Assembly (NCBI GenBank): GCA_963664115.2
Contig: CAXWPJ010000002.1
Coordinates: 800,001 to 864,000, forward strand
DNA length: 64,000 nucleotides
DNA from: Terriglobia bacterium
GTDB lineage: Bacteria > Acidobacteriota > Terriglobia > 20CM-2-55-15
Direction: 5' to 3'
Numbering within the stretch: position 1 is the stretch's first letter; every line of letters begins with the position of its first letter. Under the pieces are notes generated by a model, which saw only the letters and a program-made list of their open reading frames with translations, was not told where the DNA came from and did no database searches. Positions 14,950-32,414 of this stretch are shown here, in pieces. The position numbers were made by a program, and so were the translations under genes.

Positions 14950-15182
14950 TGGCAGTGAGAATCTTTGCTGGAATCAGCGCGGATTGCAACCGTCTCGAAT
15001 CCGGGCCGCCGTGCGGAGTCCGGAGCTGACTTGTGTGTGGGGTGATCGACCAGAGGAAGCGGGAGGCTAGTTCACAAGTTCTGTGTGACGAGACGGAGCA
15101 TTCAACCGGAACTGGAACGCAGGATCTTTTCTTCTGTGGGGATCACCGCGAACGAACAAAAAACATTGTTCCCGGGAGTGGC

Positions 15183-16067
15183 CTACATCAACACCTGTTC
15201 CCAGACGGTCCACTGCTGATTGTAGAGCCCGCTATTGCTGTAAACCAGTGGCAGGTGTTCCAATCTGCGCAGCGTCTGGCTGAGCCTGAAACGAGATCTC
15301 CACTGTTCGGCCCACCAGGATATCGGACGCAGTGTGATGTGTCCGGGATACCAGAATTGGTTCAGGTTAATCAGCAACACCAGCTTTTGAAGGCCCAGCA
15401 GGGTCCATTGTTCCACCATGGCGGAAATGTCCCGTTCGGGGATGTGTTCCAGGACGTCAATCGCGATCAGCGTGTCGAATCCATCGCTCGCATCGAAAGG
15501 AATATCGGTGAGTGATCCGACACGGAGGTAGTCGCGGACTTCCTCGAACGCGATGTCGCGCAGATTGGGAATAATGTCGAAACCGTGGGCGTCCATACCT
15601 TGGTTCCGGCATTGCCGGACCAGTTCACCGTTCGAGCATCCTGCGATGACGCATTTGCCAGGGTTAGCCAGCTCTTTGATAATGGTTGCCTGGATGGTCT
15701 TGATTTCAATTTCCCGAGGAGACCCTTTGGTGTAGTCGTTGTCCTGGTGATAGGACTCGTCGTAGCTCACCATTTGAGTGGGTTCGGGTGACCATCCGAA
15801 GGTCAGGGCGTTGGTAAACGCGCTCAAAATGAAGCCGAAGTACCGATCGTGAGCTCCCGGTTCGGCGAGGCTGCCTGTATAGGGGGTGTGGGTCGTGATG
15901 ATTGCGTTCGAGGTCTTGCCGTTGAAGAGGATGGTACCGGTGTTGTCGTATAGACGATCAGTGAACCCGATTTCTATCGTCGAGCCGTCCCATTCCTGCA
16001 AGTCGAGATCGAAGTTACCGGATCGCCCTTCGTGCTGGAGCTCTAGTGTGATTTGTGCGTCGACCAT
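15183..16067 (-). CDS. Class I SAM-dependent methyltransferase with extra N-terminal domain
   Basis: AGCSNG, HGFDI, FDTLIAIDVLEHIP, GHITL motifs. Confidence 0.7.
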   Translation of the reverse strand: MVDAQITLELQHEGRSGNFDLDLQEWDGSTIEIGFTDRLYDNTGTILFNGKTSNAIITTHTPYTGSLAEPGAHDRYFGFILSAFTNALTFGWSPEPTQMVSYDESYHQDNDYTKGSPREIEIKTIQATIIKELANPGKCVIAGCSNGELVRQCRNQGMDAHGFDIIPNLRDIAFEEVRDYLRVGSLTDIPFDASDGFDTLIAIDVLEHIPERDISAMVEQWTLLGLQKLVLLINLNQFWYPGHITLRPISWWAEQWRSRFRLSQTLRRLEHLPLVYSNSGLYNQQWTVWEQVLM

Positions 16068-16280
16068 TGGGCTTCTCTCGGTTGTTCGGTGGCAGACAAA
16101 CTCGAAGAAACGAGGAGCATTTGAGCCTCCAAAACTATAATAGCTATAGCCGCTATGAATATTATTTTACTTTCATGGGTTTAGGCAGAGCAGGGTTTGT
16201 CGAGCATAGAGTGATCGGAGTTATTTCTGGCGGAAAACTGACAGAATTTGAGGACAGAGACCGGATTCTGGCACCTTAAG

Positions 16281-17357
16281 TTAATCAATTCTGGCCCGAG
16301 GCGGAATCCTGTCGCCGTCCCCGACCATGAAGAACTGTTGCATTGCGCTCGCGATATCCAGTTTCTCAAAGTGTTTGAAGCCGGCTTCCGATGCCAGGGC
16401 CCGAGCTCCGGTCTCGCCGATGATCGTGCCCAGTCCGGCGCCTCCTGTTGCCAATGACACGGTCAGGCAATGATAGGGGCTGAGGTTTGCACGCATTTTT
16501 CCAACCGGATCGCGGTTTGCCATGGGTTCGTGAGATCCTGTGGGTTCAGACCAGAACAGGATTCCGTTTTCATTGAGTAACTTTCGAATGTTTTGGAGCT
16601 CGCCTGCCGGATCGGGCATGTCGTGGATGCAGTCGATGGCCAAGACGAGGTCGAAGCGGTCCCCTCGAGGCATGTCCTCGAGACGGACGACTCGAAACTC
16701 CACGTTGCTGAGCTTTCTTTCAACCGCAAGGTCCCGCGCCCTTGCGATGCTTTTCCGATGCGGATCGATTCCGACAATCTTTGAAAGGGGGTAGGCGTGG
16801 GCGAGGGCCACGGTGGAGCGTCCCAGGCCGCAGCCGACGTCGAGAACTCGGATTCCGGTCTCCAATCGCTCCTGAAGGTTCCCCGCCGCTCCCAGCCACA
16901 GGGACGTCAGCTGGTGGTCGAACCACGGACGATGCATGCGGTCGATCGCCTCAGGAATTTCTTCTCCGAGTTCTGCGTACGAAATACCGCCGCCATTTCG
17001 AAAGACCTCAATCAGAGCTTCGGTCTGGAGTAGCGATGGCAACGCGAACTGAAACGCGCCTGCCCCAAAGACGGGCGACCCTTCATCAGCCAGGACCGAG
17101 CGTTGCTCTTCCGTCATCGAATACAGGTCATCGGCACTGTCGTGTTCGACGTAGCCAGCACTGACCATGGCCTTGAGCCATTCCCTCACGTAGCGTTCGT
17201 TGAGACCCGCTTGGGTGGCGATTGCCTCACTCGAAGCCGGTCCGTTTGCGGCAACGATCTTGAACAGGCCGAGTCGATCCCCGATGTACCCCAGCCCGGC
17301 TGCAAACGCGCCTCCGACATCGGCAATGACAGCCCCGACGATCGGTTGTTCACTCAT
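16281..17357 (-). CDS. Class I SAM methyltransferase with N-terminal winged helix (Rv2258c-like)
   Basis: IGDRLGLF...ERYVREWL, VLDVGCGLG, DCIHDMPDP, YHCLTVSLA-x-GG-x-GLG. Confidence 0.88.
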   Translation of the reverse strand: MSEQPIVGAVIADVGGAFAAGLGYIGDRLGLFKIVAANGPASSEAIATQAGLNERYVREWLKAMVSAGYVEHDSADDLYSMTEEQRSVLADEGSPVFGAGAFQFALPSLLQTEALIEVFRNGGGISYAELGEEIPEAIDRMHRPWFDHQLTSLWLGAAGNLQERLETGIRVLDVGCGLGRSTVALAHAYPLSKIVGIDPHRKSIARARDLAVERKLSNVEFRVVRLEDMPRGDRFDLVLAIDCIHDMPDPAGELQNIRKLLNENGILFWSEPTGSHEPMANRDPVGKMRANLSPYHCLTVSLATGGAGLGTIIGETGARALASEAGFKHFEKLDIASAMQQFFMVGDGDRIPPRARID

Positions 17358-17534
17358 ATGTCGCTCCTGTCAAAATGTGGCGTTGCCGTTGTCAATTTTA
17401 ACGGATGTATCGTACTCCTTCTATCCGTGTGAGGCATTCCGTGCCCTCGGTGCCAGTGCGGTCTCGGGGTGCGGAAGTGATTTAATAGCGGTACAATCGT
17501 CGGACCTTATAGCACGCATTCAAGGGAGTATCTG

Positions 17535-18170
17535 ATGTCGGACAAGTGGATGATTCGAGGCAGTGAATACGGAAATTGCAATTGTAATTGGGGATGTCCG
17601 TGCCAGTTCAGTGCTCCAAGCACTCACGGCAACTGCGAAGCTGTGGTCGGTGGACAAATCGATGAAGGCTATTTCAACGATACGAAGTTGGACGGCTTGC
17701 GTTGGGCTCTGGTGGTTTACTGGCCTGGTGAAATCATTGAAGGGAATGGGAAGCAACAGGCGATCATTGATGAACGGGCTGACGAAGCTCAGCGGGAAGC
17801 TATCCGCAAGATCATCCACGGCGAATCCACGGCACCGGGAGCCACGCATTTCTTCGTGTACAACAGCACGATGTCCGAGGTCCTGGAGCCTATCGTTGCC
17901 GCGATCGAACTCTCGATTGACATCGATGCGCGGAGAGCCCAGTTGAAGGTGGAAGGGAAGATTGATTCGATTGGGACACCGATCACCAGTCCCGTTGATG
18001 GTTCGGAGTCCCGTTCCCGGATCCACCTGCCCAACGGTTTCGAATACACCTACGCAGAAATGGGCAACGGGACATCAAAGGTTCGAACCGGCATCGAACT
18101 GGATTTATCCGACAGCTACGCCCAGTTCAACGTGCTCCATATGAATCAGGATGGCGTCATTCGTTCATAG
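17535..18170 (+). CDS. DUF1326 domain protein
   Basis: GNCNC-x3-CPC...HGNC, WPG-x3-EGNG, IDERADEAQR. Confidence 0.88.
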   Translation: MSDKWMIRGSEYGNCNCNWGCPCQFSAPSTHGNCEAVVGGQIDEGYFNDTKLDGLRWALVVYWPGEIIEGNGKQQAIIDERADEAQREAIRKIIHGESTAPGATHFFVYNSTMSEVLEPIVAAIELSIDIDARRAQLKVEGKIDSIGTPITSPVDGSESRSRIHLPNGFEYTYAEMGNGTSKVRTGIELDLSDSYAQFNVLHMNQDGVIRS

Positions 18171-18959
18171 ATGACGGAGCCCGACCGCCAAAAGTTGCCG
18201 CGCCGTGACCGGTGGGCCATCCTCACCGGTCTGGCGGGCATCACCATCCTGTCCTGGATCTATCTGTTTATTCTGGCCTCAAACATGGACGGGATGCCGA
18301 TGTCAGCCATGTCCGAAATCATGGCGATACGCCCGTGGACGGGTGTGGATTTCCTGCTCATGTTCCTCATGTGGGCGGTCATGATGGTCGCCATGATGGT
18401 GCCGACGGCCGTCCCCATGACGCTTCTCTACGCGTCCGTCGCCCGGAAAGCGGCCGCCCAGCTGAGCCCTCTGGCCCCGACCTCTGTTTTCGTAGCGGGT
18501 TACATCGGCATGTGGTGCCTGTTCAGTGCCGCCGCGTCCCTCGCCCAGTGGGCCCTGGATCAAACAGCAATGCTTTCACCGATGATGGTATCTCGCAGCC
18601 CGTTCCTGGGTGCAGGCCTTCTTATCGCCGCTGGTGGCTATCAACTCACGCCGATCAAGAACAGTTGCCTTACGCATTGCCGGGCACCCGCTCATTTCTT
18701 TTCCCGGCACTGGCGGAAAGGTTGGACCGGAGCTCTCCTTATGGGTATGGTGCACGGCGCCTATTGTCTGGGTTGTTGCTGGGTTCTGATGGGGCTCTTG
18801 TTTCTGGGCGGCGTCATGAACCTGCTCTGGATCGCCCTCATCAGTGTCTTTGTTCTGTTGGAAAAGGTCCTTCCTTTGGGTGAGGCCGGGGGGCGTGTTG
18901 CCGGTTTCGCGATGATAGTTCTCGGTGTGTTGACGCTTGCAGGGTTCGGGCTGTCTTGA
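18171..18959 (+). CDS. DUF2182 predicted metal-binding integral membrane protein
   Basis: MWAVMMVAMMVP, YQLTPIK-x2-CL-x2-C and YCLGCCW motifs; adjacent to DUF1326. Confidence 0.88.
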   Translation: MTEPDRQKLPRRDRWAILTGLAGITILSWIYLFILASNMDGMPMSAMSEIMAIRPWTGVDFLLMFLMWAVMMVAMMVPTAVPMTLLYASVARKAAAQLSPLAPTSVFVAGYIGMWCLFSAAASLAQWALDQTAMLSPMMVSRSPFLGAGLLIAAGGYQLTPIKNSCLTHCRAPAHFFSRHWRKGWTGALLMGMVHGAYCLGCCWVLMGLLFLGGVMNLLWIALISVFVLLEKVLPLGEAGGRVAGFAMIVLGVLTLAGFGLS

Positions 18960-19249: not shown

Positions 19250-21073
19250 TCAGTCCGCCGGCTGCTCCGATAATCGGACGATGCCTTCGGGTGACGCCTC
19301 GAGCTCCGGAGGGGCCGCCGTCTCGGAAGGCACGAGGAAGAGCCCACGTTGGCGGGTCCATTGACCCAGCGCCCGGCTGCTGGTCCCCCGAACCAGCGGA
19401 GCGGCCAGGAGCAAGCCCGTAAAGATCGGTGTCAGCCACAGGAAGAAGGTCGGGCTGCAGTACAGCGTCAGTCCCGCCCAGCCAAGCCCGAACGCCGTGA
19501 TTCCTCGAGCGCTACGCCAGGCGCCCAGCCACGGGACCACTCGCGCTTCGCGCACTGCAGGTTCCCAACGGATGTCATGGCCACTGAGCACGCTCACGAT
19601 GAAGCGGCTGTGATACATCATCATCACAGGTGCGATCACGACCGCGAACAGCATTTCCAGCAGGGCGCTGAGCAAGAGGCGCCCGGTTCCGCCGAATGGC
19701 CGCCGATCACCGGCAAGCGTGAGAATCACCCCAAGTAGCTTGGGCACGAACAACAGGCCGATGGTCACGCCCAGCAGCGGGACGATCTGGCTCGCCGTCG
19801 GCGAGGGACTCGACCAATCCGGAAACAGTGAACCCCCGCCAAGAAATGCCGCAATGCCGAATGATGGCAGCACAATATGGGCTGTACTGGCGAGCAGCAT
19901 CAGCAGCCACAGCAACGACGCGATGTAGCCCAGCGCCCCGAGCAGAAAATGCAGTCGGCTCAACGGGTGCAGTCCACGGGTCCGCAACAGTCGCAGGTGC
20001 TGTAGGCTCCCCTGGGTCCAGCGGCGGTCGCGCTTGGCGTAGTCCAGAATGTTGGCAGGGACTTCTTCATAACTGCCACCGATGGACGGCAGCAGGTAGA
20101 CAGCCCAGCCGGCACGACGCATCAGGGCCGCCTCGACGAAGTCATGGCTCAGGACAGCGCCACCGAGCGGGGGATTGCCCGGGAGTACCGGCAGGGTGCA
20201 GTGCTCAACAAATGGCCCGACCCGGATAATGGCGTTGTGGCCCCAGTAGTTGGCCGCATCGGTTTGCCAGAAACTCTGGCCGGTCGCGAGCATCGGACCG
20301 TAGATGCAGCCGGCGAACTGCACCAATCGGCCGAACAGCGTGTCCCGGCGGACAGGCATCGGCACCGTCTGGATCAGGCCGATGCCGGGGTTGGCCTCCA
20401 TCGTACGCACCAGTTCGACCAAGGTTGGCCCGGTCATGACGCTGTCGGCATCCAGCACCACCATGAAATCGTAGTCCGCGCCCCAGCGTTCACAGAAGTC
20501 TGCAATGTTGCCGGCCTTACGACCGATGTTGGCGTGTCGGCGGCGGTAGTAAAGGCCGGTCGAACGGCCCAGTTCCTGCCGCAAGGTCGTCCATGCAGTC
20601 TCTTCTGCACGAGCGATCTGCGGATCGGTCGTATCGCTCAGCAAGTGCAGGTCGAACTGTTCACCGTGACCGGTACAAGCCAGCGAGCGCAGCACGACGG
20701 CCAGGCCGCTCATAATCCGTTCGGGGTCTTCGTTGTGGGCCGGCATGACCAGAGCGGTGCGACCGGCGATCCCTCCATCAAGCTTTCGGGCCGTCGCCGG
20801 ACCGAGTGACAGTGGATCGCGTCCGAGCACCATCAGGGCGAAGCCGATTACAGCGTTCCAGAAAGAGATGGAAATCCAACTGAAGGTCACCGCAAACAGC
20901 ACCAGAACGACGATCTCCAGGGCGTTGATGCCGGCGTACCGTACGATGTCAATCATCATGCGGATACCGATCAGGGCCGTGCCGCCTACCAGGCCGAAGA
21001 ACAGCCGGCGGCGCAGCCGCGGCAGCGGCGGACGGATGCTGCCTGCATGCTTCCCCGGGTTCAGACTCGGCAT
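19250..21073 (-). CDS. opgH: Glucans biosynthesis glucosyltransferase H
   Basis: MPAHNEDP, LSDT, RKAGNIADF, LDADS, NYWGHNAIIR, LSHDFVEAALMRRAGW, RDRRWTQG. Start at the ATG 21073, just after the opgG stop. Confidence 0.93.
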   Translation of the reverse strand: MPSLNPGKHAGSIRPPLPRLRRRLFFGLVGGTALIGIRMMIDIVRYAGINALEIVVLVLFAVTFSWISISFWNAVIGFALMVLGRDPLSLGPATARKLDGGIAGRTALVMPAHNEDPERIMSGLAVVLRSLACTGHGEQFDLHLLSDTTDPQIARAEETAWTTLRQELGRSTGLYYRRRHANIGRKAGNIADFCERWGADYDFMVVLDADSVMTGPTLVELVRTMEANPGIGLIQTVPMPVRRDTLFGRLVQFAGCIYGPMLATGQSFWQTDAANYWGHNAIIRVGPFVEHCTLPVLPGNPPLGGAVLSHDFVEAALMRRAGWAVYLLPSIGGSYEEVPANILDYAKRDRRWTQGSLQHLRLLRTRGLHPLSRLHFLLGALGYIASLLWLLMLLASTAHIVLPSFGIAAFLGGGSLFPDWSSPSPTASQIVPLLGVTIGLLFVPKLLGVILTLAGDRRPFGGTGRLLLSALLEMLFAVVIAPVMMMYHSRFIVSVLSGHDIRWEPAVREARVVPWLGAWRSARGITAFGLGWAGLTLYCSPTFFLWLTPIFTGLLLAAPLVRGTSSRALGQWTRQRGLFLVPSETAAPPELEASPEGIVRLSEQPAD

Positions 21074-21074
21074 G

Positions 21075-22697
21075 CTACTGGACACGATCGGGATACCACA
21101 CATAGCTCCAGGTTTCCGTCAGACTACGGCCATCCAGCGTCAGGTAGAGCCGCATGTCGGCGGGTCGATTGCCCTCTGGAGCAAGCCGGAAAGCGGCACG
21201 CCATCCCCTCCCGTCCGGCAATGGCTGGACTCTCAGATCGGAAGTCTGACCGGCGGAGGTCTCCAGCTGAGCTTCGACCGGCTGCGTGTTCTCGAAGGAG
21301 GACAAATCACCACCGCTGAAGTCGACGATGATCCGGCGCTGGCTCGGCGGCGATGAGGCGCTCTGACCGGGAAGAGCATCCCGGCCGATGCGCGTGCGTT
21401 CTACCGCAGCGAGCCTCTGGGCTTCGAGTCGGCTGTCGAATGTCATCAGGCGGTAGCGGTAGCGCCGTTCATCGCCGGCCATGAACGGTTGGTCGGGGAC
21501 CCAGTAGGCGGCGATGTTGTCGTTGAACTCGGAATCGGTAGGGATGGTCAGCAGTTCGACGCCGCCGCTGCCCCAATCGCCCTCTCCGAGGGTGACCCAT
21601 TCGCTGGGACGGCGATGGTAGCTGGTCTCGAGGTCGAGGTAGTTGTCGAAATCCCGGTCCCGTTGCACCAGGCCGAAGCCCTTTGGGGTGTCATCGCGCA
21701 ACGACGTTACCTGAAGTCCTGGTCCGTTGCCGAGCGGCCGCCAGATCCACTCGCCGGCAGCGGTGTGCATCAGCAAGCCATCCGAGTCGTGCACCTGGGG
21801 GCGGAAGTCATCAAATGGCGGCGTCCGGTCCGGACCGTAAAGAAACATGCTGCTCAGGGGTGCCACACCGAGCTTGGCGACATCGTGTCGCGCAAACAGG
21901 CGGGCATCGACCTCCAGTGTCGTGGGGGCGCCCGGTTCGAGATCGAAGCGATAAGCACCCGTCACCGACGGGCTGTCGAGCAGGGCGTAGAAGGTGAGTG
22001 TCGTCGCTTCCGGTCCCGGTCGGACCAACCAAAACTCGCGGAATGAGGGGAATTCCTCACCGCTTTCCAGGGCGACATCGACAGCCAGGCCTCGCGAGGA
22101 CAGCCCATAGACATGCCCCTGCCCCAGCAGGCGGAAGTAGGAGGCACCGAGGAATGCCACGACCTCGTCCTTGATGGCGGTGCTGTTAAGCGGGTAGTGT
22201 ATCCGGAATCCAGCGTAAGCTAGTTCGGGGCCGACGATGTCGGCAATCGATGCCGCACGGCCGTCGTAGCGGAACCGGTTCTTGTCGAAGCTAAGCGCCG
22301 CGATCTGCTGTTCGTGCACCAGGTGAATCCGGACCGGCTCCCGGTAGAGAGATCCCGGATGAAACAGCTGTACCTCGAAGGGCGTTTCGTTATGCCACAG
22401 GGCGGCCTCGGGACGGAAGCGGATTGACCGGTACTGCTCATAATCCATGCGCTCGAGCGCTGCCGGCAGAACGGCCTCCGGGGGCACGTATGGGATCTCG
22501 GCCAGGCTACGGGCCCGCTCGGTGACGTGCTCGAACAGCGTTGCTGGCGTCAGGGGCGCGAGCAGGGAGCTAGATGATTCGCTTGCGAACGGATCCTCGG
22601 TTGGGCCCGGGTTGGTGTCTCGGTCGGACTGGGATACTGTTGTGTTCTGCTCGAGGGCGGGGTTGCATGCCGCGGCGAGTACTAAGGACAGCGACAA
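21075..22697 (-). CDS. opgG: Glucan biosynthesis protein G/D family (start uncertain)
   Basis: DYEQYRSIRF, FLGASYFR, YGLSSRGLA, EEFPSFREFW, APLSSMF, RPQVHDSDGL, NDNIAAYW, ETWSY. The only plausible non-overlapping start is TTG 22697. Confidence 0.88.
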   Translation of the reverse strand: MSLSLVLAAACNPALEQNTTVSQSDRDTNPGPTEDPFASESSSSLLAPLTPATLFEHVTERARSLAEIPYVPPEAVLPAALERMDYEQYRSIRFRPEAALWHNETPFEVQLFHPGSLYREPVRIHLVHEQQIAALSFDKNRFRYDGRAASIADIVGPELAYAGFRIHYPLNSTAIKDEVVAFLGASYFRLLGQGHVYGLSSRGLAVDVALESGEEFPSFREFWLVRPGPEATTLTFYALLDSPSVTGAYRFDLEPGAPTTLEVDARLFARHDVAKLGVAPLSSMFLYGPDRTPPFDDFRPQVHDSDGLLMHTAAGEWIWRPLGNGPGLQVTSLRDDTPKGFGLVQRDRDFDNYLDLETSYHRRPSEWVTLGEGDWGSGGVELLTIPTDSEFNDNIAAYWVPDQPFMAGDERRYRYRLMTFDSRLEAQRLAAVERTRIGRDALPGQSASSPPSQRRIIVDFSGGDLSSFENTQPVEAQLETSAGQTSDLRVQPLPDGRGWRAAFRLAPEGNRPADMRLYLTLDGRSLTETWSYVWYPDRVQ

Positions 22698-22754
22698 GGG
22701 AGCGATGAGGAACCGGCGCGCGAGGGTATTCGCGAATTCCCGGGAGCGGTAACT

Positions 22755-24428
22755 ATGAAGATGAGTGTTCCAGCAAAGATCCTGGGCTTGCCGTTTGTCC
22801 TGTTGCTCCTCAACGGCTTGTTGCTTGCTCCGCAGTGGCTGCTGACGGGCAGTCTGGGACCGGGCTGGATCGCTATCGAGTCGTTGCTGGTGGTCGGGGT
22901 GTTCCTTTTGCTGCCGCGCCGGCGCCCGCGTGCGGCGCTGGCAGCGGGCACCGGCACCTTCCTGGTGTTGCTGAGCGTCGTGGCATTCGCGGATGCCGTG
23001 GCCCGGCAGAGCCTGGGCCGGGGGTTGAATCTCTACCTTGATGTGCATCTGGTGAGCGCGGTCTACAAGCTGCTGAACGGGGCGCTGGGCCCGGCTGTGG
23101 CGGTTCTACTCATGGTGGGCTTGGCGCTGGGTGCTGCTGTCTCGGTCCTCATCCTAGCCTACCTGTTGCAGTCCGTCGAGATCCATTCGTCGAAATCGGG
23201 CACTCGGATCGCGGGCGTGGCACTGATCGCTCTCTTCGGAGTTGGCCTGGCGGGTGAACAGATGCCCGTGCTCAGTGAACGGATCACCTTACCTGCGGTG
23301 GGGATCGCCACGGATCAGACTCGGGGTTTCTTTCGGATGTTGGAGGAAGCGGAGCGGTTCACCGCCGAACTGGCCGTCGTTCCCGACGGCTACGCCGGAG
23401 TGGGTGGGTTCCTCGGAAAGCTGGTCGGCCATGATGTAGTGCTGGCCTTCATCGAATCCTATGGGGTGTCGGCTCTCTACGATCCTCGCTTTTCGCCCGT
23501 AATCCTGCCCCGGTTGGATGTCCTGGACACTCGTATGGCGGACGCCGGTCTGCACTTGGCCACCGGCACGTTGGTAGCACCGACCCGGGGCGGCGAGTCC
23601 TGGCTGTCGCACGGGTCGTTGTTCAGCGGGTTGTGGCTGGATAATCAGTTGCGCTATGACCTGATGCTGGCCAGCGGCCGGGGGACGCTGATCGACGATT
23701 TCCGCCGTGCCGGCCATCGCACTGTTGCCCTGATGCCGGCGATCACGCTGGCGTGGCCGGAGGGGGAGCGCTTGGGCTACGACCAGATCTTTGCCCTTCG
23801 CAATATCGATTACGCGGGGCCAGCCTTGAACTGGGTCACGATGCCGGATCAGTACACCTGGTCCTTTCTGGAACGTGCGATTCTCACCACTGATGACGCC
23901 GACACCAGACCCGTGTTCGCCGAGCTTGGCTTGATCAGCAGTCACGCACCCTGGACGCCGATCCTGCCCGTACTGGATGACTGGGACAGCATCGGCGATG
24001 GATCGGTCTTCGCGCCCTGGGAAAACGCCGGGGAGCATCCGGATGAGCTGTGGCGGGACATGGATCGCGTCCGCGAGCACTATGCGCTCTCGGTGGACTA
24101 TGCGATCCACACGATGGCCAGTTACGCCGAGCGCTACGTCGACGAGGGAACCTTGCTCATCGTGCTCGGCGATCACCAGGCGGCGCCGTTGATCATCGGT
24201 GATGATGCCAGTCCAGCCGTGCCCGTCCACGTCATCAGCCGTGATCCGGGACTGGTGCAGCCCTTTCTGGACTGGGGGTTCCAGAGCGGGGCGCTTCCTG
24301 ACCCGGACCGGCCGGGGCCGGGCATGGATGCCTTTCGTGATTGGTTCGTACGGGCTTTCAGCAAATCCGCCGCGGGTGGGGAAACGTTAACCGCACCGGT
24401 GCCCGAAGAAGCCGCGGATACGGGCTGA
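22755..24428 (+). CDS. Membrane-anchored alkaline-phosphatase/sulfatase-superfamily protein (LtaS/OpgB-like architecture)
   Basis: About 5 N-terminal TM segments, then FIESYG, PTRGGESWLSH, SSHAPW and LGDHQ. Confidence 0.8.
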   Translation: MKMSVPAKILGLPFVLLLLNGLLLAPQWLLTGSLGPGWIAIESLLVVGVFLLLPRRRPRAALAAGTGTFLVLLSVVAFADAVARQSLGRGLNLYLDVHLVSAVYKLLNGALGPAVAVLLMVGLALGAAVSVLILAYLLQSVEIHSSKSGTRIAGVALIALFGVGLAGEQMPVLSERITLPAVGIATDQTRGFFRMLEEAERFTAELAVVPDGYAGVGGFLGKLVGHDVVLAFIESYGVSALYDPRFSPVILPRLDVLDTRMADAGLHLATGTLVAPTRGGESWLSHGSLFSGLWLDNQLRYDLMLASGRGTLIDDFRRAGHRTVALMPAITLAWPEGERLGYDQIFALRNIDYAGPALNWVTMPDQYTWSFLERAILTTDDADTRPVFAELGLISSHAPWTPILPVLDDWDSIGDGSVFAPWENAGEHPDELWRDMDRVREHYALSVDYAIHTMASYAERYVDEGTLLIVLGDHQAAPLIIGDDASPAVPVHVISRDPGLVQPFLDWGFQSGALPDPDRPGPGMDAFRDWFVRAFSKSAAGGETLTAPVPEEAADTG

Positions 24429-24438
24429 TCGATTCGAC

Positions 24439-25194
24439 GTGTCGTGCTCTGAATGGCTCGGGTTACTTCGATCCCTGATCGTCTACTGGCGTCCCGGTCG
24501 TCAGAAGAAGCTGCGCCGGCTCTATCGCCCGTTCGTGGGAGTGGGGGACCTGGTCTTCGATGTGGGTGCACACCTGGGCGATCGTTCGGTCGCATTCGCG
24601 GCCCTGGGTGCCCGAGTGGTGGCGCTGGAGCCCCAGCCCCAGGTCGTGCCCTGGCTCCGGCGACTCGTGGGACGGAACGACAGTATCATCGTGCGGGCTG
24701 AGGCGGTGGGGGGCGCTGCGGGAACCGCCCGCTTGGCCATCAGCAGGCGAACACCCTCCGTATCCACACTGGCCGAGACCTGGCGGCGGAAGCTTCCGGA
24801 GGCCAACCCCGGCTTCGGGCGGGTCCGTTGGGAGGACGCGGTGGAGGTCCCTGTCATTACACTGGATGCCCTCATCGAGATCCACGGCCTCCCGCGCTTC
24901 TGCAAGATTGATGTGGAGGGATACGAGGCCGAGGTCCTCGCCGGACTGAGTTACCCGATACCCGGCGTGTCGGTGGAGTTCGTCTCCGGCGGCCTGGAGG
25001 TGGCGGTGGCCTGTATTCATCGGCTCGGCCAGCTCGGGACTTATGAATTCAACGCCATTGCCGGCGAGGGCAGGGAATTCGTGTTTGACGGTTGGGTGAG
25101 GAGCGAGGGCATCGCAGATTGGCTGGACGAAGGCGCGGGCGGCGCGTTGTCTGGTGACGTCTACGCCCGACTCCGGCTCGCTCATCCGAGCTAG
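24439..25194 (+). CDS. FkbM family methyltransferase
   Basis: FDVGAHLG, ALEPQ, VITLDALI, KIDVEGYE. Confidence 0.9.
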   Translation: MSCSEWLGLLRSLIVYWRPGRQKKLRRLYRPFVGVGDLVFDVGAHLGDRSVAFAALGARVVALEPQPQVVPWLRRLVGRNDSIIVRAEAVGGAAGTARLAISRRTPSVSTLAETWRRKLPEANPGFGRVRWEDAVEVPVITLDALIEIHGLPRFCKIDVEGYEAEVLAGLSYPIPGVSVEFVSGGLEVAVACIHRLGQLGTYEFNAIAGEGREFVFDGWVRSEGIADWLDEGAGGALSGDVYARLRLAHPS

Positions 25195-25320
25195 GTGAAC
25201 CTTAGCGGAGTAAGTCGAACATAGACACCGGCCTCAGACCGAGCGGTGGTGGTGCGTCAAGCCGGTTGTTCGCCCCATCCGGCCCCCGTACTGGCCCAAT
25301 GCGAGGGCGCGGTCACCAAT

Positions 25321-26844
25321 CTAAGGCCGTTGACCGAGGCCGCGTGTTTCAACCAGCCTGCAGGCGAGTGAAGAAGAAGTTGCGGTCGAGGGCTGCTTTT
25401 CCGTGCGGTCAGTCGCCATCGAATTGGAGGCCGGCTTTTCCACATCCGCGTAGAGGACGAGGTCGCCGGCGAAAGACTCGTGGTGCACGTTTGTCAATCT
25501 GCCGTTGCCCGGAGTCATCGGCAGCGAGGGTTTGACGGCTGTCAGACTGTCGACGAACTGAGGGACAATCGTGATGATCATCCGGTCAACCAGATGGCAG
25601 GCCACGAAGTCCGTGATGACTCCCGCCCCCCCCTCGACCATCAATGAGCGGATACCCAGCTCATAAAGATGCCGCAGTAACATGTGGAGATCGACCCGGC
25701 CATTGGGGTTGGAAGACAGGCGGACGACGTCGGCTCCGCGCGCCCGCAGCCGTGTTTCTCGAAGAGCGCTCGCCTGTTCCGTTGTCGCGATAATCGGCGG
25801 CACGCATGGAGGGCTCAAGAGTCTGGCCTCGAGAGGTGAGCGCAGGTGTGAGTCGAGAACGACCGGCTGTGGGTTCTTTCCGGCAACGAGGCGAACCGTC
25901 AGGCGCGGGTCGTCCGACAACAGTGTGTTGATTCCGACCAGGATCGCATCGTGCATTGAACGCAGTCGGTGCGTCAGGGCTTGCGATTCGGGGTTGCTGA
26001 GCTGGAGCGGTTTGCCGGCCTCGGCTGCGATCGCCCCATCGAGGCTCTGGGCGTAGCTCAATGTCACCGACGGCACTGCATCCGGGTGAGGAAGCGCCTC
26101 CCCTTGCCGCAGGCTGGCGCGCAGTCGGGACACTACGCCGCCGTTGTCGGGCTCGGGCGCAGTTTCAATGGAAATGGTCCCAGCGGCATGGTTCGTGAGA
26201 ACTTCACCTGCGGGGGTGGCGATGGCGGGCAACGGGCTGAGGAGATGGCCCATTTTGGACGCTTTCGTCTGAAGGTATGCGTAATTTTCCGGTCGCGGTG
26301 GAATGTAGTGTCGCGCCCGTTCAACCACACGGATGCCAAATGCCTCCAGCGCTTTTACCTTCTCGGGGTTGTTGGTCGCAAGTCGAACGGAGTAGACTCC
26401 CTGGTCGTTCATCATCGCGGCAGCGTGCGCGTAGCTCCGCACGTCCGCGGGGAATCCCAGATGCAGGTTCGCTTCCACAGTATCCATCCCCTCGTCCTGC
26501 AAAGCATAGGCACGGATCTTGTTGGTCAGTCCGATGCCCCTCCCCTCCTGCCTCAGGTACAGGAGCAGACCGCGGCCTTCCTCGGATATGTAGTCCAGCG
26601 CGGCCTGCAACTGTTCCCCGCAATCGCAGCGTATCGAGCCGAACACGTCCCCGGTCAGGCATTCGGAATGGATGCGAACCAGTGGCGGCGAGCCGTCCAG
26701 CTCACCCATGCGGACCGCGAGGTGCTCCTTACCTTCCCCGTCCCGGTATACGGTAACGGTAAATTCACCTAAGGCCGTCGGGATACGGGCCGACCCTGAT
26801 CGGTGAATCGTGTCCCCTGTGGTTGTTCCGAGATCTACTTTCAT
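25321..26844 (-). CDS. ribA: GTP cyclohydrolase II fused to a RibD/Rib7-type pyrimidine reductase domain
   Basis: [37 protein letters not shown]; C-terminal [30 protein letters not shown]. Confidence 0.88.
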
Positions 26845-27149
26845 ATCCAATGAACAATAGCCAGTTTCAAAAAGTGCAGTTCGCGCCTTCAGCGCACACC
26901 TGCGGAGGCGTGGATGCCACCGAGGCCATGAAGACGTTTACGAAAAACCTGGGGACGGGCACCTAACCCGCGTCCGAGCTAAACACAAACACGTACATCC
27001 GTCAATTGTTCCGATCTTTAAGCCCCGTTTGCGAGTTGTCATCCGCGGGGCGAGCGGCTGTTCTCCGGAAGTATAGTGCAGTACATTGAACATCTCATGC
27101 TAGTGGTCCATATGATTCGCAGCCCTCTGGCCATGCCCGGGCTCGACGG

Positions 27150-27725
27150 GTGAGTTCAGAAAAGCAAACTTCAGCCAGGCTCTTTCTCGTCCGTCATGGC
27201 CAGGATCTGGATAATTCTCGTTCTCTGATCAACGGCAGACGAGATACTCCCCTGACTGACCTGGGGAGAACCCAGGCGCTGGCCGTGGCCGAGCAGCTTC
27301 GATCGGAGGTAATCAATTGCGTTTACACCTCACCACTCCAACGAGCGAGCGAGACGGCTTCAATAATCTCCGAGAACCTAGGTATTGCGGAAATTCATGT
27401 GGAGTCGGACCTCATCGAGAGAGATTATGGAGTGCTCACCGGAAGACCGGTCGCCGACATCCCTCTACACGCCAGCAACATAATCGTGTTGGATGATTTT
27501 CGCTACGTCATCGATTCACCTGGCGTGGAAGACTACGCGCGTCTGTGGACACGGGCGGGAGACGCTCTTCGGAGCATCCAGAATCGCCATGCCGGTCAGA
27601 GGGTTCTCGTCGTGGCCCACAACGAAGTGATCAAGATGCTGCGGGCGAATTTCTATGGGAAGTCCTGGGAAGATGAACTGCGGCTCTCCCCCGTGAATAA
27701 CTGTGAGGTGATCGCTCTGGCTTAG
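27150..27725 (+). CDS. Histidine phosphatase family protein
   Basis: LVRHGQ, TSPLQRA, LIERDYG, VVAH. Confidence 0.88.
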   Translation: MSSEKQTSARLFLVRHGQDLDNSRSLINGRRDTPLTDLGRTQALAVAEQLRSEVINCVYTSPLQRASETASIISENLGIAEIHVESDLIERDYGVLTGRPVADIPLHASNIIVLDDFRYVIDSPGVEDYARLWTRAGDALRSIQNRHAGQRVLVVAHNEVIKMLRANFYGKSWEDELRLSPVNNCEVIALA

Positions 27726-27772
27726 ACGGGTCCGCCTCTCGACGGAACCGAACAAAGAGTTCGAGTCCGATA

Positions 27773-28525
27773 TTATTTCAGCGATGGACGGCGGGCGACG
27801 CGCGCTAGCCAGGCGATATCGATGGCAAACGAACTGCTCATTAGCGCGAGTCCGGCCAACGCGACGACATCGCTGGTCGGCGGCAGGAGCGGTGGAGCGA
27901 GGCAGACGGTCAACGATAGTGCAGCCACGACGCAGATCATCTGCCGCCCTCGACGTTTCGGCAACGTGCGCTTCATCCACGGCAGCAGATAGCTCGATGC
28001 GACGAACACGTAGCGCATCAGTCCGGCCGCAAGAATCCAGGGTCCGGCTTTGCCGTACTGCCACACCAGTGCGGCCATGCCGAAGATCAGCAACGCGTCG
28101 GTTTCCATGTCGAAACGTGCCCCAAAATCGCTCGTGTCACCTCGACTACGTGCAAGCCAGCCGTCGACACCGTCCATAGTGATAACAAGCGATGCGAGGA
28201 TCACTGCAAACCAGGCTTCCGCGGAGCTTGCCCTTTCACCGATCAGCGCAAGCAACATCGCGGCCATCGCGGCGCGCGCCAGCGTCACACGGTTTGCCAT
28301 TCCGAACCTATCCGAGACCAGGTGCTTCTCGGCAAGCGCCAGGATCAGCGTGGCGCCGAAACCGAAAATCAGGATTGCTTTGAGGGGGAAGAGTCTGCCG
28401 AGATCGAGGAGCCACCCCACGGTCCAGGCAAATCCCGTTGTTGCGATCAAGCAGACCGCGACGCTCCAACGGGCATTTTGTGCCGCTGTGAACTGGCGAT
28501 GAACCCTGTTAGCCAAGATCGACAT
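27773..28525 (-). CDS. CDP-alcohol phosphatidyltransferase family protein
   Basis: ANRVTLAR and the signature DGVDGWLAR-x7-GARFDMETD; start at MSILANR. Confidence 0.9.
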   Translation of the reverse strand: MSILANRVHRQFTAAQNARWSVAVCLIATTGFAWTVGWLLDLGRLFPLKAILIFGFGATLILALAEKHLVSDRFGMANRVTLARAAMAAMLLALIGERASSAEAWFAVILASLVITMDGVDGWLARSRGDTSDFGARFDMETDALLIFGMAALVWQYGKAGPWILAAGLMRYVFVASSYLLPWMKRTLPKRRGRQMICVVAALSLTVCLAPPLLPPTSDVVALAGLALMSSSFAIDIAWLARVARRPSLK

Positions 28526-28705
28526 GACCGAGGAGAAGTCCTTTTCTGTTCTTGTACAACCCTGCCTTTCGTATAGTGTAGAAGACCTGTAAATGGACCT
28601 TTCTAGCGCGTACCTTTCAATAGTTCTTGAATTCCAGATTTCGAAGAATACTTGCATCTATTGTTTCATGCAGCAAGTATCGGCCGCCACCAAGAGAAAA
28701 ACGTG

Positions 28706-29689
28706 ATGTCCAATGCCAGCGATGATGCGCGCTCGTTCTGGGTCGTCGGACCGGGCTCGGGCGAAATCCGTGCCGAGACTTTGAGGGAACCGACCAGCCA
28801 GGAAGTTCTGGTCCGGACGCTGTACAGCGGCATCAGTCGTGGCACTGAAGCCCTTGTCTTTAACGGTGCGGTACCGGCAAGCGAGTTCGGACGGATGCGG
28901 GCGCCGTTTCAGGCCGGCGATTTTCCTTCGCCGGTCAAGTATGGATATAACAATGTCGGGCACGTGGAACAGGGACCGCCCGGACTGCGGGGCCGTGTCG
29001 TTTTCTGTCTCTTTCCACATCAGACTCGCTACGTTGTGCCGGCCGAAGCCGTGTATCCGGTGCCGGCCGACGTGCCTGCCCAACGCGCGGTGCTCGCGGC
29101 CAACCTCGAAAGTGCGGTCAACAGTTTGTGGGATGCGGTCCCGAAAATTGGTGACCGCGTTGCCATCGTCGGCGCCGGTACGCTCGGGTGTCTCGTTTCG
29201 TGGCTGGTCGCAAAGATTCCGGGCTGTAGTGTCGAACTGATCGACATCGATCCCGACAAAGCAAGCGTCGCCGCCGCTCTGGGTGTCGGTTTTCGATCGC
29301 CCCAGCACGCAACTGCTGAGGCCGATCTGGTCATTCACACCAGCGCGACCGAGGAGGGTCTTTCCACCGCTTTCGGTCTCGCGGGTTTCGAGGCGAAGGT
29401 CATCGAGTTGAGCTGGTATGGAAACTGTCGGCCCGCGGTGGCACTGGGAGAGGCTTTCCACAGTCGACGCCTGAGTTTGCGCGCATCGCAAGTCAGTGCC
29501 ATCGCCCCGGTCCAGCGGGGCCGGTGGACTCCGAGACGCCGCATGGAGTTCGTTCTCCGACTGCTCAGCGATTCCGCGCTGGACGCATTGATCACGGGTG
29601 AAAGCAATTTCGACGAGCTGCCGAAGCTCATGCAAACGCTCGCGATGGCACCCGGGCGAACATTGTGCCATCGGATCGTCTATCAGTGA
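28706..29689 (+). CDS. Medium-chain (zinc-binding-like) dehydrogenase, lacking the canonical Zn cysteines
   Basis: SGISRGTE in place of CGICxxD, KYGY, HQT, GAGTLG Rossmann motif, SWYG, FHSRRL, SQV. Confidence 0.85.
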   Translation: MSNASDDARSFWVVGPGSGEIRAETLREPTSQEVLVRTLYSGISRGTEALVFNGAVPASEFGRMRAPFQAGDFPSPVKYGYNNVGHVEQGPPGLRGRVVFCLFPHQTRYVVPAEAVYPVPADVPAQRAVLAANLESAVNSLWDAVPKIGDRVAIVGAGTLGCLVSWLVAKIPGCSVELIDIDPDKASVAAALGVGFRSPQHATAEADLVIHTSATEEGLSTAFGLAGFEAKVIELSWYGNCRPAVALGEAFHSRRLSLRASQVSAIAPVQRGRWTPRRRMEFVLRLLSDSALDALITGESNFDELPKLMQTLAMAPGRTLCHRIVYQ

Positions 29690-29952
29690 CCTGTACCACC
29701 CAAATCGGGACCAGCGCCGATGGGTCTTGCCGGCGAGATCGAGGCGCGAGACGGAAGTCGATGTCTTCACATCGACGACGGCTCGCAACAAAGATATCGA
29801 CTGCAACCCCCATCGGCCCAAAGGGTTGTGGCGAAACGGCATTGTCTTCGTTGTCGTCAGCTCCTCGCAATGTAGGAGCATTTACTCGTCGCCGACTCCT
29901 AGAATCCAACGCCGTTTGGCCCGAACGCTGGTCCCGATTTGGGTGGTACAGG
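29690..29952. mobile_element. 263-bp MITE-like structured element with 27-bp perfect terminal inverted repeats
   Basis: CCTGTACCACCCAAATCGGGACCAGCG (29690-29716) is the exact reverse complement of 29926-29952; several internal hairpins; no credible ORF. Confidence 0.75.
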
Positions 29953-29983
29953 CCACGCGCAGCCCGTCGCATAGAGGATTTTC

Positions 29984-30394
29984 ATGTATAGCATCTGCGT
30001 TCGTGACCACTTCATGATTGCGCACAGTTTCGACGGCGATGTGTTCGGTCCCGCTCAAAGTCTTCACGGCGCGACGTATGTCGTCGACGTTGAATTGCGC
30101 AGACCGAAACTCGACGAAAACGGCGTCGTCGTCGACATCGGTCTGGCAGGCCAGGCGCTCGATTCCGTGCTGTCAAAGCTCAACTACCGTAACCTCGATG
30201 AGGAGCCCGCCTTGACCGGCCGAAACACGACGACAGAGTTTCTCGCACGCATCGTTTTCGATCGCCTGGCGGAACGGATTCGGGGTGGTGAACTCGGCGA
30301 CGGTGCGCGTGGACTGATTTCGATGCGCGTAACCCTGCACGAATCACACATCGCATGGGCGGCATACGAGAACGAACTGACGGACCAGGACTAG
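29984..30394 (+). CDS. 6-pyruvoyl/6-carboxy-tetrahydropterin synthase (COG0720) homolog, atypical FGPAQ type
   Basis: HFMIAHS-x5[12 protein letters not shown], VVDIG, YRNLDE, TTEFLA, LHES; GAGG RBS. Confidence 0.88.
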
Positions 30395-31530
30395 TGTCCA
30401 ATCCCAAGAAAGCGTCTGCGACCAATCGTCCCGCCGGCGCCCTGATCCTACTGGTACCCGGTGATCCCGAGACCCAGACCGGAGGCTACATCTACGACCG
30501 GCGCATCGTCTATGGTCTGGGCCGCCTGGGCTGGCACGTCGACATGTATTCTCTGGATGCGAGTTTTCCGCAACCGACGGCTCCGGCGTTGGATCATGCC
30601 CGCGGCGTACTCGCCGGTATTCCGGACGGGCAAATCGTCGTCATCGACAGCCTGGCGCTCGGGGGCTTGTCGGGACTGTTGGAGGCGGAAGCGGAGCGCC
30701 TCTGTCTGGTCGCCTTGATTCATCATCCCGTTGCCCTGGAGACCGGCCTGGACGGGGAAACAGCGCGCGTCTTCCTGGCATCGGAACGCGCTTCGCTCAC
30801 GTTCGTACGGCGAGTGGTCGTGACGAGTCCGTGGACATCGCGCAAGCTCGGCGAGTACGGCGTCGCGGCTGATCGCATCCGTGTGGTGTCGCCGGGTGTG
30901 GATGCCATGCCGGGCGGCCCGGAAAGACAGAAAGCTCGAACGGATATTCCGAACCGCGACGCGGCCGGCGAAACATCGTTGAACCTTCTTTGCGTCGCGA
31001 CTTTGACGCCGCGCAAAGGTCACGATGTGCTGTTCGATGCCCTGGCGCAGCTTGGCGACCGGCCATGGCATCTCTACTGCGCGGGTAGCCTGACCCGTGA
31101 CCCTTCGACCGCCGATGGCTTGCGCCGGCAGATCGACCGGCTAGGACTCGGCCCGAGAATCAGCTTGCTCGGGGAAGTCGATCGAGGGGAGCTTGAACGC
31201 CAGTACGCACGCTGCGACGTGTTCGTGCTCGCCTCTCATCTGGAAGGTTACGGCATGGCGCTGGCTGAGGCCATCGCGCGTGGCATACCGGTCGTCAGCA
31301 CTCTGGCTGGCGCGATCCCCGAGACCGTGCCCGCGAATGCGGGCGTGCTCGTGCCCCCGGGAGATTACCGGGCGCTGGCACAAGCATTGGCAAAGCTCAT
31401 GGACGACCCGGATACGCGCCGGCGGCTGGCTTCGAACGCGCTGGCAGCACGCAAGCTGCTGCCGACCTGGAGCCAGGCCTCGAGGCAGTTTGGGGCCGCG
31501 CTCGAGGATCTCGTGAGCAGCGAGTCGTGA
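30394..31530 (+). CDS. Glycosyltransferase family 4
   Basis: TGGYIYDRR, RKGHDVL, EGYGMALAEA; GTG start overlaps the PTPS stop. Confidence 0.9.
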   Translation: MSNPKKASATNRPAGALILLVPGDPETQTGGYIYDRRIVYGLGRLGWHVDMYSLDASFPQPTAPALDHARGVLAGIPDGQIVVIDSLALGGLSGLLEAEAERLCLVALIHHPVALETGLDGETARVFLASERASLTFVRRVVVTSPWTSRKLGEYGVAADRIRVVSPGVDAMPGGPERQKARTDIPNRDAAGETSLNLLCVATLTPRKGHDVLFDALAQLGDRPWHLYCAGSLTRDPSTADGLRRQIDRLGLGPRISLLGEVDRGELERQYARCDVFVLASHLEGYGMALAEAIARGIPVVSTLAGAIPETVPANAGVLVPPGDYRALAQALAKLMDDPDTRRRLASNALAARKLLPTWSQASRQFGAALEDLVSSES

Positions 31531-32414
31531 ACAGTTTTTCAGACGAATGGCTCTGCCTGCGCGAACCGCTCGATGTTGCATCGCGGTCCGCTGAACTTGC
31601 GGCGATTGTTGCGCAAGCAGTTCGCCCAATCGAATCGCGGGATCTACCAATTCACGTCGTCGATCTCGGCGCCGGCACGGGCGCCAACCTGCGTTACCTG
31701 GCACCGCTGCTCGGCGGCTCCCAGGACTGGCTGTTGGCCGAGGGGGATCCGTTGCTACTCGATGCCCTGGGTGACCGGATGCGGATCTGGGCAGATTCGT
31801 CCGGCGCGCGTGTCTTCGAAAGCGAGGGCGGGCTGATCGTTCGTGCGACCCGGTTCGAGTGCCATATCCGCTGCGTGGCCATCGATCTCGCAACGGAACT
31901 GGATCGCGTGGTATTACCAAAGCGATGTCTGCTTACTGCTTCCGCCCTGCTCGACCTGGTGTCGGAAGACTGGCTGGCGCGATTGGCCCAGCGCTCGATA
32001 AATGCCGGAGCATCCGTGTGGTTCACCCTGAGCTACGACGGGCGCATAAACTGCGATCCGGCGGAACCGGAAGATGGTAACGTGCGTGAGCTGTTCAATA
32101 GACACCAGCTGGGAAACAAGGGCTTCGGTCCGGCACTCGGTCCCAGTGCATCGCGGAGGGCCGCCGAGATTTTTGAGGACTGTGGCTACCGCACCCGCAG
32201 TGAGGCGAGCGATTGGCGGGTCAAATGTGCCCACCAGGGGCTGCAGCGGGCCCTGCTCGAGGATTGGTTCGACGCCGCAAGCGAAATCGACCCCGATCGG
32301 GCATCCCAGTTGCAGAAGTGGCGTGAGCGACGCCTGGTCCACATCGAGAGCGGCCGATCCGAGTTGATCGTCGGACACGCCGACATGATCGCCTGGCCGA
32401 ACCAGAGCTCATGA
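31527..32414 (+). CDS. Class I SAM-dependent methyltransferase
   Basis: WLCLREPLD-x2-SR, VDLGAGTGANLR, TASALLDLVS, FNRHQ; GTGA overlap with the GT4 gene. Confidence 0.82.
   Translation: MNSFSDEWLCLREPLDVASRSAELAAIVAQAVRPIESRDLPIHVVDLGAGTGANLRYLAPLLGGSQDWLLAEGDPLLLDALGDRMRIWADSSGARVFESEGGLIVRATRFECHIRCVAIDLATELDRVVLPKRCLLTASALLDLVSEDWLARLAQRSINAGASVWFTLSYDGRINCDPAEPEDGNVRELFNRHQLGNKGFGPALGPSASRRAAEIFEDCGYRTRSEASDWRVKCAHQGLQRALLEDWFDAASEIDPDRASQLQKWRERRLVHIESGRSELIVGHADMIAWPNQSS

Follow-up and report, generated by a model that had tools for sequence, protein, structure and literature searches.

T-fold proteins of the PTPS-IV subfamily carry the signature FGPAQ and have been reported with PF00925 proteins as neighbours; the available text of PMC5445326 calls PF00925 FolE2/GTP cyclohydrolase I (GCH I), whereas the Pfam name is GTP cyclohydrolase II (GCH II). 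In the available text of PMC3818809, OpgB and OpgE shift the phosphoglycerol and phosphoethanolamine head groups of phospholipids onto osmoregulated periplasmic glucans (OPG). OpgG and OpgD are described as beta-1,2-glucanases with a catalytic Asp pair and an Arg (PMC10514313, text available in part), and BcsG, with five transmembrane (TM) helices and the nucleophile Ser278, modifies the glucan cellulose (bioRxiv 10.64898/2026.09.23.753746, text available in part). The locus analysed here lies at 19250-32414 of a stretch of 64,000 nucleotides from a Terriglobia bacterium (contig CAXWPJ010000002.1 of assembly GCA_963664115.2, positions 800,001 to 864,000, forward strand), the whole of which is termed the window. 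Unlike the described PTPS-IV neighbourhood, its PTPS-IV cluster includes a gene for an LtaS-fold protein, here called sulf, together with opgG and opgH. We see about an even chance that the locus makes a GTP-derived ring compound X, glycosylates it, loads it onto a lipid and transfers it to the glucan produced by OpgGH.

The cluster comprises eleven genes, the open reading frames (ORFs) of which are open throughout. Nine have family matches in Pfam or NCBIfam and the other two were identified by fold, and all agree with the names given in a first-pass annotation made from the letters alone. The same annotation had described the genes as contiguous. All are present, but they are distributed over six units on alternating strands, namely opgG-opgH (-), sulf-fkbM (+), ribA-ribD (-), hisP (+), cdp (-) and mdr-ptps-gt4-mt (+), with an element resembling a miniature inverted-repeat transposable element (MITE) inside the last one; the eleven genes are not one operon. 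Since the identical eleven-gene order is kept in three of four genomes of the same genus and the core recurs across phyla, a chance grouping can be excluded.

The product of opgH (19250-21103, - strand) exceeds both equivalog cut-offs (NF003958, 780 bits versus 419; NF003962, 617 versus 328). The gene is single-copy in the window's genome, and OpgH, which forms the beta-1,2-glucan backbone, likely makes the glucan acceptor. The adjoining opgG (21075-22748, - strand) encodes a periplasmic protein of the MdoG/GH186 family with an MdoG domain (PF04349, 608 bits, E = 1.3e-182) and a lipobox-like LAAAC. Its 5' end abuts the start of sulf head-to-head and almost without a gap (window 22700-22760), a junction compared with those of five relatives. 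As no ATG is found between the lipobox-like signal and the sulf start codon on the opposite strand, neither in the window nor in four relatives, opgG either starts with a non-ATG codon or overlaps sulf. The same divergent position relative to opgG is held in E. coli by opgC, the gene of the OPG succinyltransferase.

For the sulf product (22755-24428, + strand), sequence searches against Pfam, NCBIfam and PDB chains gave no match, and comparison with E. coli OpgB revealed no sequence relationship (hhalign probability 1.4%). A TM scan and the AlphaFold2 model (pLDDT 82) indicate about five TM helices and a domain of alkaline-phosphatase fold. Foldseek matched the membrane-anchored proteins LtaP, LtaS, MCR-1, EptA and GacH with a best E value of 1.4e-9 and with TM-scores that are low by query length (0.33-0.39; 0.37 for the best match), which assigns the protein to the LtaS/EptA/BcsG fold. 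Glu234, Ser282 and His397 are present in 148 of 148 homologues, and Asp473 and His474 in 147 of 148; these residues presumably correspond to the nucleophile and metal ligands of LtaS. On the basis of the model, the protein is predicted to be a head-group transferase with Ser282 as the likely nucleophile. The CDP-alcohol phosphotransferase gene cdp (27773-28522, - strand, ORF open to 28657; PF01066), the start of which at about 28522 was placed by means of the homologue in G017, encodes a conserved DGxDGxxAR..G...DxxxD. The defining motif of these enzymes is DGxxAR...GxxxDxxxD.

The remaining genes could supply the head group. The GCH II-reductase fusion (25321-26850, - strand) combines a RibA domain (PF00925; TIGR00505, 241 versus a cut-off of 206) with a RibD_C domain (PF01872) and has no match to a deaminase domain; the RibD_C part reaches 123 bits with TIGR01508, below the cut-off of 186. 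The Tyr of the RibA motif NKIRAY, which we take to be a mark of full GCH II activity, is kept in 82 of 82 homologues, and the Streptomyces copy has Met at this position. The meaning of this Tyr/Met swap is said to have been the subject of work by Spoonamore in 2006. For S. coelicolor, a third RibA with a non-flavin function is reported in the available text of PMC13151069. A search with Pfam and NCBIfam found no deaminase, ribB, ribE or ribH among the eleven genes, and the claim that rib and fol genes are missing thus holds for the cluster, but not for the genome, which has a tandem set of ribD-like, ribE-like and ribBA genes on contig C12 (ORFs read), a stand-alone ribA on C1 and folE on C6. 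The fusion is consequently not the only riboflavin entry enzyme. Two cofD-like genes far from the cluster (C9:666398 and C2:970432) suggest F420 synthesis.

A histidine phosphatase of the His_Phos_1 family (hisP, 27150-27725, + strand; PF00300) likely removes the 5'-phosphate. The dehydrogenase of the MDR family (mdr, 28706-29689, + strand) resembles BchC and polyol dehydrogenases (TIGR01202, E = 8.7e-12, under the cut-off; iditol dehydrogenase, E = 2e-5) and shows SRGTE in place of the Zn-binding Cys motif. The T-fold protein (ptps, 29984-30394, + strand; PF01242) is closely homologous to SCO6650 (PDB 3D7J, entered as 'uncharacterized protein', E = 5.6e-55) and carries FGPAQ as F21-G22-P23-A24-Q25. 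The motifs of PTPS-I, -II and -III (CxxxHGH, CxxxxxHGH and ExxHGH) are not matched, the window sequence being AQSLHGA. While His14 and His28 are kept, Ala24 and Ala30, found in 116 of 116 homologues, replace the Cys and the third His of QueD. Because the two kept histidines are accompanied by His9, Glu85, Glu120 and His122, near-invariant in the 116 homologues, a rebuilt metal site is possible. PTPS-IV is the COG0720 subfamily that the first-pass annotation had described as a productless neighbour of GTP cyclohydrolase, glycosyltransferase and CDP-alcohol transferase genes. The cluster core is thus already known without its product; the literature searched describes no product of PTPS-IV, a structure entry (3D7J) exists, and older papers on PTPS and GCH may mention some of the neighbours. 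The last two genes encode a GT4 glycosyltransferase (gt4, 30355-31530, + strand; PF00534), which is predicted to glycosylate the ring compound, and a class I S-adenosylmethionine (SAM) methyltransferase (mt, 31527-32414, + strand), assigned by its AlphaFold2 model (pLDDT 96.7) and Foldseek matches to SAM methyltransferases (E = 7e-12). The fold comparison of mt gave no clue to the substrate; its reaction is likely an early, synthesis-side step.

How these genes travel together was followed in two surveys. The first covered about 10 kb on each side of 78 PTPS-IV loci from GTDB genomes, i.e. the best 80 of at least 485 matches minus two duplicates from the same genus. These nearest-PTPS loci contain gt4 (77), mdr (76), mt (71), RibD_C (64), cdp (52), sulf (38), ribA (23), fkbM (20), creatininase (18) and LPG_synthase_TM (10) genes. 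A histidine phosphatase gene is present in only one of them as against five of seven family loci, so that the gene is lineage-specific; an IMPase-like gene lies inside the cluster in four loci (L252, L284, L301 and L302). Such a survey had been proposed to learn how often sulf, opgG and opgH occur together; besides sulf in 38, it found opgH in four and opgG in one of the 78 loci. Taken alone, it made the opg link seem negligible.

The second survey, anchored on sulf, gave a different picture. Among 80 metagenome loci (the best of at least 491 matches), opgG adjoins sulf in 44 of those 45 whose upstream sequence reaches 2.5 kb or more, and the 19 full-length loci contain opgG in all cases and opgH and PTPS-IV in 16 each. 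In the whole collection, sulf and opgG are divergent and less than 1.5 kb apart in 88 of 102 loci holding both, and PTPS-IV occurs with opgG or opgH in 47 loci and 19 order patterns, several of which are mere truncations. The proposed linkage of opgGH to the cluster therefore recurs in other genomes, although rarely in the nearest-PTPS loci. A Gemmatimonadota-wide link was considered and dropped: only three of 201 genomes matched sulf, and at L235, where the cluster is present, opgGH is absent from 20 kb of sequence. No report of a link to glucan was found in the literature searched, nor of the importer substitution described below. Upstream of the PTPS-IV cluster on a Thiodictyon plasmid (L249, NZ_CP020371.1) lie two SLC23 nucleobase-type transporter genes.

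At the level of whole genomes, the counts are descriptive, genomes within a family not being independent. In the G246 family (Chromohalobacter, 151 genomes), 87 genomes have sulf, 88 PTPS-IV, 86 both and 62 neither, leaving three discordant, and opgH is present in 88 of 88 PTPS-positive versus 19 of 63 PTPS-negative genomes (30%). The only sulf-positive genome without PTPS-IV, G363, retains a remnant of sulf of about 57 codons beside intact opgGH, and sulf is absent from the 12 kb retrieved for nine further PTPS-negative genomes that have opgGH of the window type. In the G401 family (Variovorax, 201 genomes), opgH is found in seven of eight PTPS-positive genomes versus 54 of 193 (28%); the exception, G504, has no visible cdp or sulf in its locus and, like G404, an ORF of cyclic-glucan-synthase type. 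In the G616 family (Rhodovulum, 201 genomes), opgH accompanies PTPS-IV in 16 of 16 genomes versus 86 of 185 (46%), sulf in 27 of 28 versus a background of 75 of 173, and any module in 42 of 43 versus 60 of 158; of the 20 sulf loci fetched, 14 include opgH. In the G246 family, four genomes without PTPS-IV (G313, G302, G324 and G285; loci L243-L246) have a cluster-type GT4 (41-42%) beside opgG and no other cluster gene in 20 kb, which may be a remnant or have a different role.

Within the G616 family, synthesis genes are replaced by importers. Of its 28 sulf-positive genomes, five have only PTPS-IV, 15 only an importer of the NMT1/THI5 type and one has both, while six carry a sugar-type importer in the locus and one a decayed locus. 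In all 20 fetched sulf loci (L272-L291) cdp adjoins sulf, usually accompanied by genes for the flippase-like LPG_synthase_TM and cytochrome b561. Three of these loci come from PTPS-positive genomes and are importer-free, 11 contain an ATP-binding cassette (ABC) importer of the NMT1/THI5 type (PF09084) and six one of the sugar type (SBP_bac_1). A GT4 gene is present in eight of the 11 NMT1 loci and in none of the six sugar-importer loci, and none of the importer loci showed mt. Close orthologues of the NMT1 protein (at least 69% identity) occur in 21 of 201 genomes, a count that leaves out five genomes with weaker matches only; one of the 21 is also PTPS-positive and 20 have opgH. The structures nearest to this protein are 4NMY, ThiY (3IX1) and THI5/13, i.e. 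pyrimidine binders of the thiamine pathway (E = 6e-11 to 2e-4), and those nearest to the sugar-type binding protein (encoded at L279:12570-13877; the NMT1 type at L288:11835-12830) are 5CI5, maltose- and trehalose-binding proteins and SmoF.

Since importers replace the synthesis genes and GT4 is kept only with the NMT1 type, the pathway would run from ring compound to glycoside, lipid and finally glucan. Most simply, the aglycone X would be the product of RibA, RibD_C, MDR, PTPS-IV and mt, GT4 would turn it into the X-glycoside, and this would be the substrate for cdp, the flippase-like protein and sulf. The importer swap independently supports a small-molecule head group. The FkbM-family methyltransferase gene (24439-25194, + strand; TIGR01444) is kept with the opgH-opgG-sulf block in G007 and G017 and also occurs in the importer loci L279, L285 and L308; because it persists there, in keeping with its place beside sulf in the window, FkbM likely acts late and travels with opgGH-sulf. 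Among the importer loci, L315 (G725:C15) is decaying: between opgG and GT4 it retains only pieces of sulf and of the genes for the NMT1 binding protein and the permease. In L310 (G764), an NMT1-type importer neighbours a creatininase-like gene; cdp, sulf and GT4 are absent, and the importer possibly takes up X for catabolism or salvage. Genes for cytochrome b561 (PF01292) are frequent in clusters with the lipid route and in those without it (L272-L291, L292-L300, L249 and L251), which hints at a redox-active product.

Put together, the proposed route would start with RibA opening GTP to a ribosylamino-pyrimidinone phosphate, which the fused RibD_C-type domain would reduce, with no deamination, to the ribityl form and the histidine phosphatase would dephosphorylate. 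The MDR enzyme might then oxidise a ribityl hydroxyl, and ring closure to a dihydroneopterin-like pteridine would be possible; ribityl reduction followed by oxidation equals an Amadori shift and could thereby provide a dihydroneopterin-like ring for the T-fold protein. PTPS-IV and the class I methyltransferase would tailor the ring to X, likely an aminopyrimidine or pteridine, which could equally stay a ribityl-pyrimidine. GT4 would convert X to the X-glycoside, the CDP-alcohol phosphotransferase would couple it to CDP-diacylglycerol, and the LtaS-fold enzyme, using Ser282, would move the phospho-X-glycoside to the glucan with release of diacylglycerol, FkbM methylating late. The earlier idea of a GTP-derived moiety passed to a lipid and then to glucan is thus favoured by importer swap, linkage and co-occurrence, but the link is not universal and a variant without the lipid route exists. 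Two findings that would have refuted it, an absence of opgGH linkage from other genomes and a RibA fusion serving as the sole riboflavin entry enzyme, did not turn up. What the analysis shows are the identities of the genes, their folds and conserved residues, the linkage, the co-occurrence and the replacement by importers; the individual reactions, the structure of X and the acceptor are predictions.

Several observations weigh against this route. Besides the rarity of opgH and opgG in the nearest-PTPS loci (4 and 1 of 78), opgG and the cluster are both absent for about 10 kb around sulf in 17 of 38 fetched loci of the G246 family, the other 21 having opgG adjacent, and in the G616 family the overlap of sulf with PTPS-IV is confined to six genomes. 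In G013 and G021, which carry the core, neither sulf nor opgG was detected. No MdoG was detected in five of five core-bearing genomes tested (G013, G403, G404, G405 and G042), several of them metagenome-assembled genomes (MAGs) at risk of being incomplete, and no cyclic-glucan-synthase domain in G013, G021, G042, G403, G043, G405 and G616, again including several MAGs. Micromonospora (L087) has sulf, and opgH was looked for and not found, so that the acceptor cannot always be OPG; in Actinobacteria, core and cdp are present and genes for glucan were not detected. The window's genome showed no flippase-like LPG_synthase_TM, cytochrome b561 or creatininase genes (tblastn, 1e-6), which are common in other versions. 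The PDB matches of the NMT1 importer are weak (about E = 1e-10), and the co-occurrence counts, as stated above, come from related genomes.

The last group of such observations concerns clusters with opgH beside the core and no cdp or sulf in the locus (L292-L300, Methylosinus and the gammaproteobacterial L037 and L077). The OpgH proteins of these loci and of L306-L308, where the order is opgH-NMT1 importer-GT4, form one clade (L253 included) in FastTree trees, in which 15 of 16 members are linked to GT4 plus the PTPS core or an NMT1 importer and opgG is missing from the locus. Second opgH copies are present in G719, G675, G789 and G044. The loci of this clade strengthen the tie between X-glycoside and OpgH product, but show the lipid step to be optional. 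Independent recruitment of OpgH was considered as well and dropped: midpoint-drawn trees suggested two or three separate linked clades, but in a 24-row tree, which lacked an outgroup and any unlinked rows from Rhodobacteraceae, a branch with support 95 has all 16 linked rows on the same side. The OpgH trees are fitted equally well by an old association that has persisted over a range of about 35-50% identity.

Part of this evidence could be accommodated if two modules were merely co-located under shared osmotic control, with cdp and sulf decorating OPG with a head group of an ordinary or sugar type and the core making a soluble pterin- or pyrimidine-glycoside that serves as antioxidant, pigment or solute. 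The separation of the opgH-opgG-sulf-fkbM block from the core by 670-820 kb in G007 and G017, the overlap of sulf and PTPS-IV in only six of the 28 sulf-positive genomes of the G616 family and the cores without sulf in G013 and G021 would fit, and GT4-made pterin glycosides are known in cyanobacteria. We nevertheless regard this as unlikely, as sulf-positive genomes lacking PTPS-IV almost always have an importer inside the cdp-sulf locus, and in the G246 family sulf tracks PTPS-IV (86 of 87) rather than opgH and decays once PTPS-IV is lost. The no-lipid OpgH clade, with 15 of 16 members beside GT4 and the core or an NMT1 importer in loci that lack cdp, sulf and opgG, could instead mean that a GT4-made X-glucoside primes OpgH to give X-(Glc)n, the lipid branch being a side route or secondary. 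OpgH needs a glucoside primer in vitro, but GT4 enzymes usually form alpha-linkages, the window's OpgH falls in the sulf- and opgG-linked clade, and cdp and sulf are intact in the window, which makes priming decidedly unlikely here.

An X-bearing membrane lipid as the end product, or another envelope polymer as the acceptor, with opgGH as co-regulated neighbours, would suit the Actinobacteria as well as G013 and G021, where core and cdp occur and genes for glucan were not detected, and would agree with the varied acceptors of LtaS-fold enzymes. This is improbable given that the pathway is almost wholly nested in opgH-positive genomes in three families and that the head-to-head arrangement with opgG is conserved; it may hold for Actinobacteria yet fail in the window. 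A role in a branch leading off from the synthesis of a cofactor such as F420, riboflavin or folate is suggested by the available text of PMC5041015, which ties PTPS-IV to F420 synthesis citing unpublished work, and by the two cofD-like genes of the window's genome. However, cofD is present in only two of five cluster-bearing genomes and was not found in G246, G262 and G401, folE occurs in five of five tested genomes, the riboflavin genes are separate, and GT4, the CDP-alcohol phosphotransferase, the LtaS fold and OpgH would be left unexplained; such a role is very improbable.

The MITE-like element (29686-29956, no strand assigned) is about 270 bp long, has terminal inverted repeats of 31 nt and lies between mdr and ptps. 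Five further full-length copies (82-91% identity) and several partial ones are present in the genome, most of them flanked by TA. It is missing at the mdr-ptps site in G001, G004 and G017, and in G002 the site has similar MITE-like ends with a different interior. To the left of opgH (window 13933-18959) lie genes for a GT9 glycosyltransferase, two methyltransferases, a DUF1326 protein and a PpoB2-type membrane protein; nothing was noticed that would tie them to the cluster, and no search aimed at this was made. Further left, at window 12434-13482, a zinc-type alcohol dehydrogenase-like gene is split over two frames with a break near 12750-12770, due to a frameshift or an assembly error. A scan of the locus for promoters and terminators gave results at chance level.

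For the productless PTPS-IV pathway, the comparisons made here put the steps in sequence and name the periplasmic glucan as a likely acceptor. With them, the question can be tested directly in harmless bacteria that grow in culture, since the ligands of the two importer binding proteins should be pathway intermediates. If the proposed route is true, it would bring in a novel phospholipid head group and a novel OPG substituent, a route to a pterin-like ring that does not depend on GCH I and a shared environmental metabolite. More tentatively, and with a likelihood somewhat short of even, many bacteria may anchor a pterin-like heterocycle derived from GTP on their periplasmic beta-1,2-glucan via a new phospholipid carrier, some trading X or its glycoside through ABC importers and cytochrome b561 keeping the ring reduced. 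OPG would then be a scaffold for a redox cofactor and not only an osmolyte.

Comparison with described systems shows where the locus agrees with them and where it departs. An FGPAQ protein with a PF00925 neighbour is common to the locus and the SCO6650 system, and a Streptomyces record has the same mdr-ptps-gt4-mt-cdp core; the Streptomyces RibA has Met and is accompanied by creatininase, whereas the window's RibA has Tyr and forms a fusion with the reductase. The combination of a RibA equivalog with RibD_C likewise resembles the riboflavin entry of archaea and fungi, in which GCH II is followed by a Rib7/ArfC-like reductase before deamination. Unlike a riboflavin operon, the cluster lacks the deaminase, ribB, ribE and ribH, and a separate riboflavin set exists. 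The importers of the relatives correspond to ThiXYZ-type systems (ThiY, NMT1/THI5) in their PF09084 binding protein, ATPase and permease, but they are embedded in cdp-sulf-GT4 or opgH-GT4 loci without synthesis genes, and none is found in the window. The logic of pterin-type enzyme, GT4 and methyltransferase is shared with the pterin glycosides of cyanobacteria and green bacteria. These start from GCH I and are soluble, whereas the window combines entry through GCH II with lipid and glucan enzymes.

With OpgB, OpgE and BcsG, as well as LtaS/LtaP, EptA/MCR and GacH, the sulf product shares the TM anchor and the alkaline-phosphatase fold, with a glucan synthase as neighbour; it also has a conserved candidate for the Ser nucleophile and residues that may act as metal ligands. 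By analogy, the system would work like the substitution carried out by OpgB, OpgE and BcsG, yet it is not OpgB by sequence. In contrast to OpgB and its counterparts, sulf has its own CDP-alcohol phosphotransferase and genes for synthesis or import of a head group alongside.

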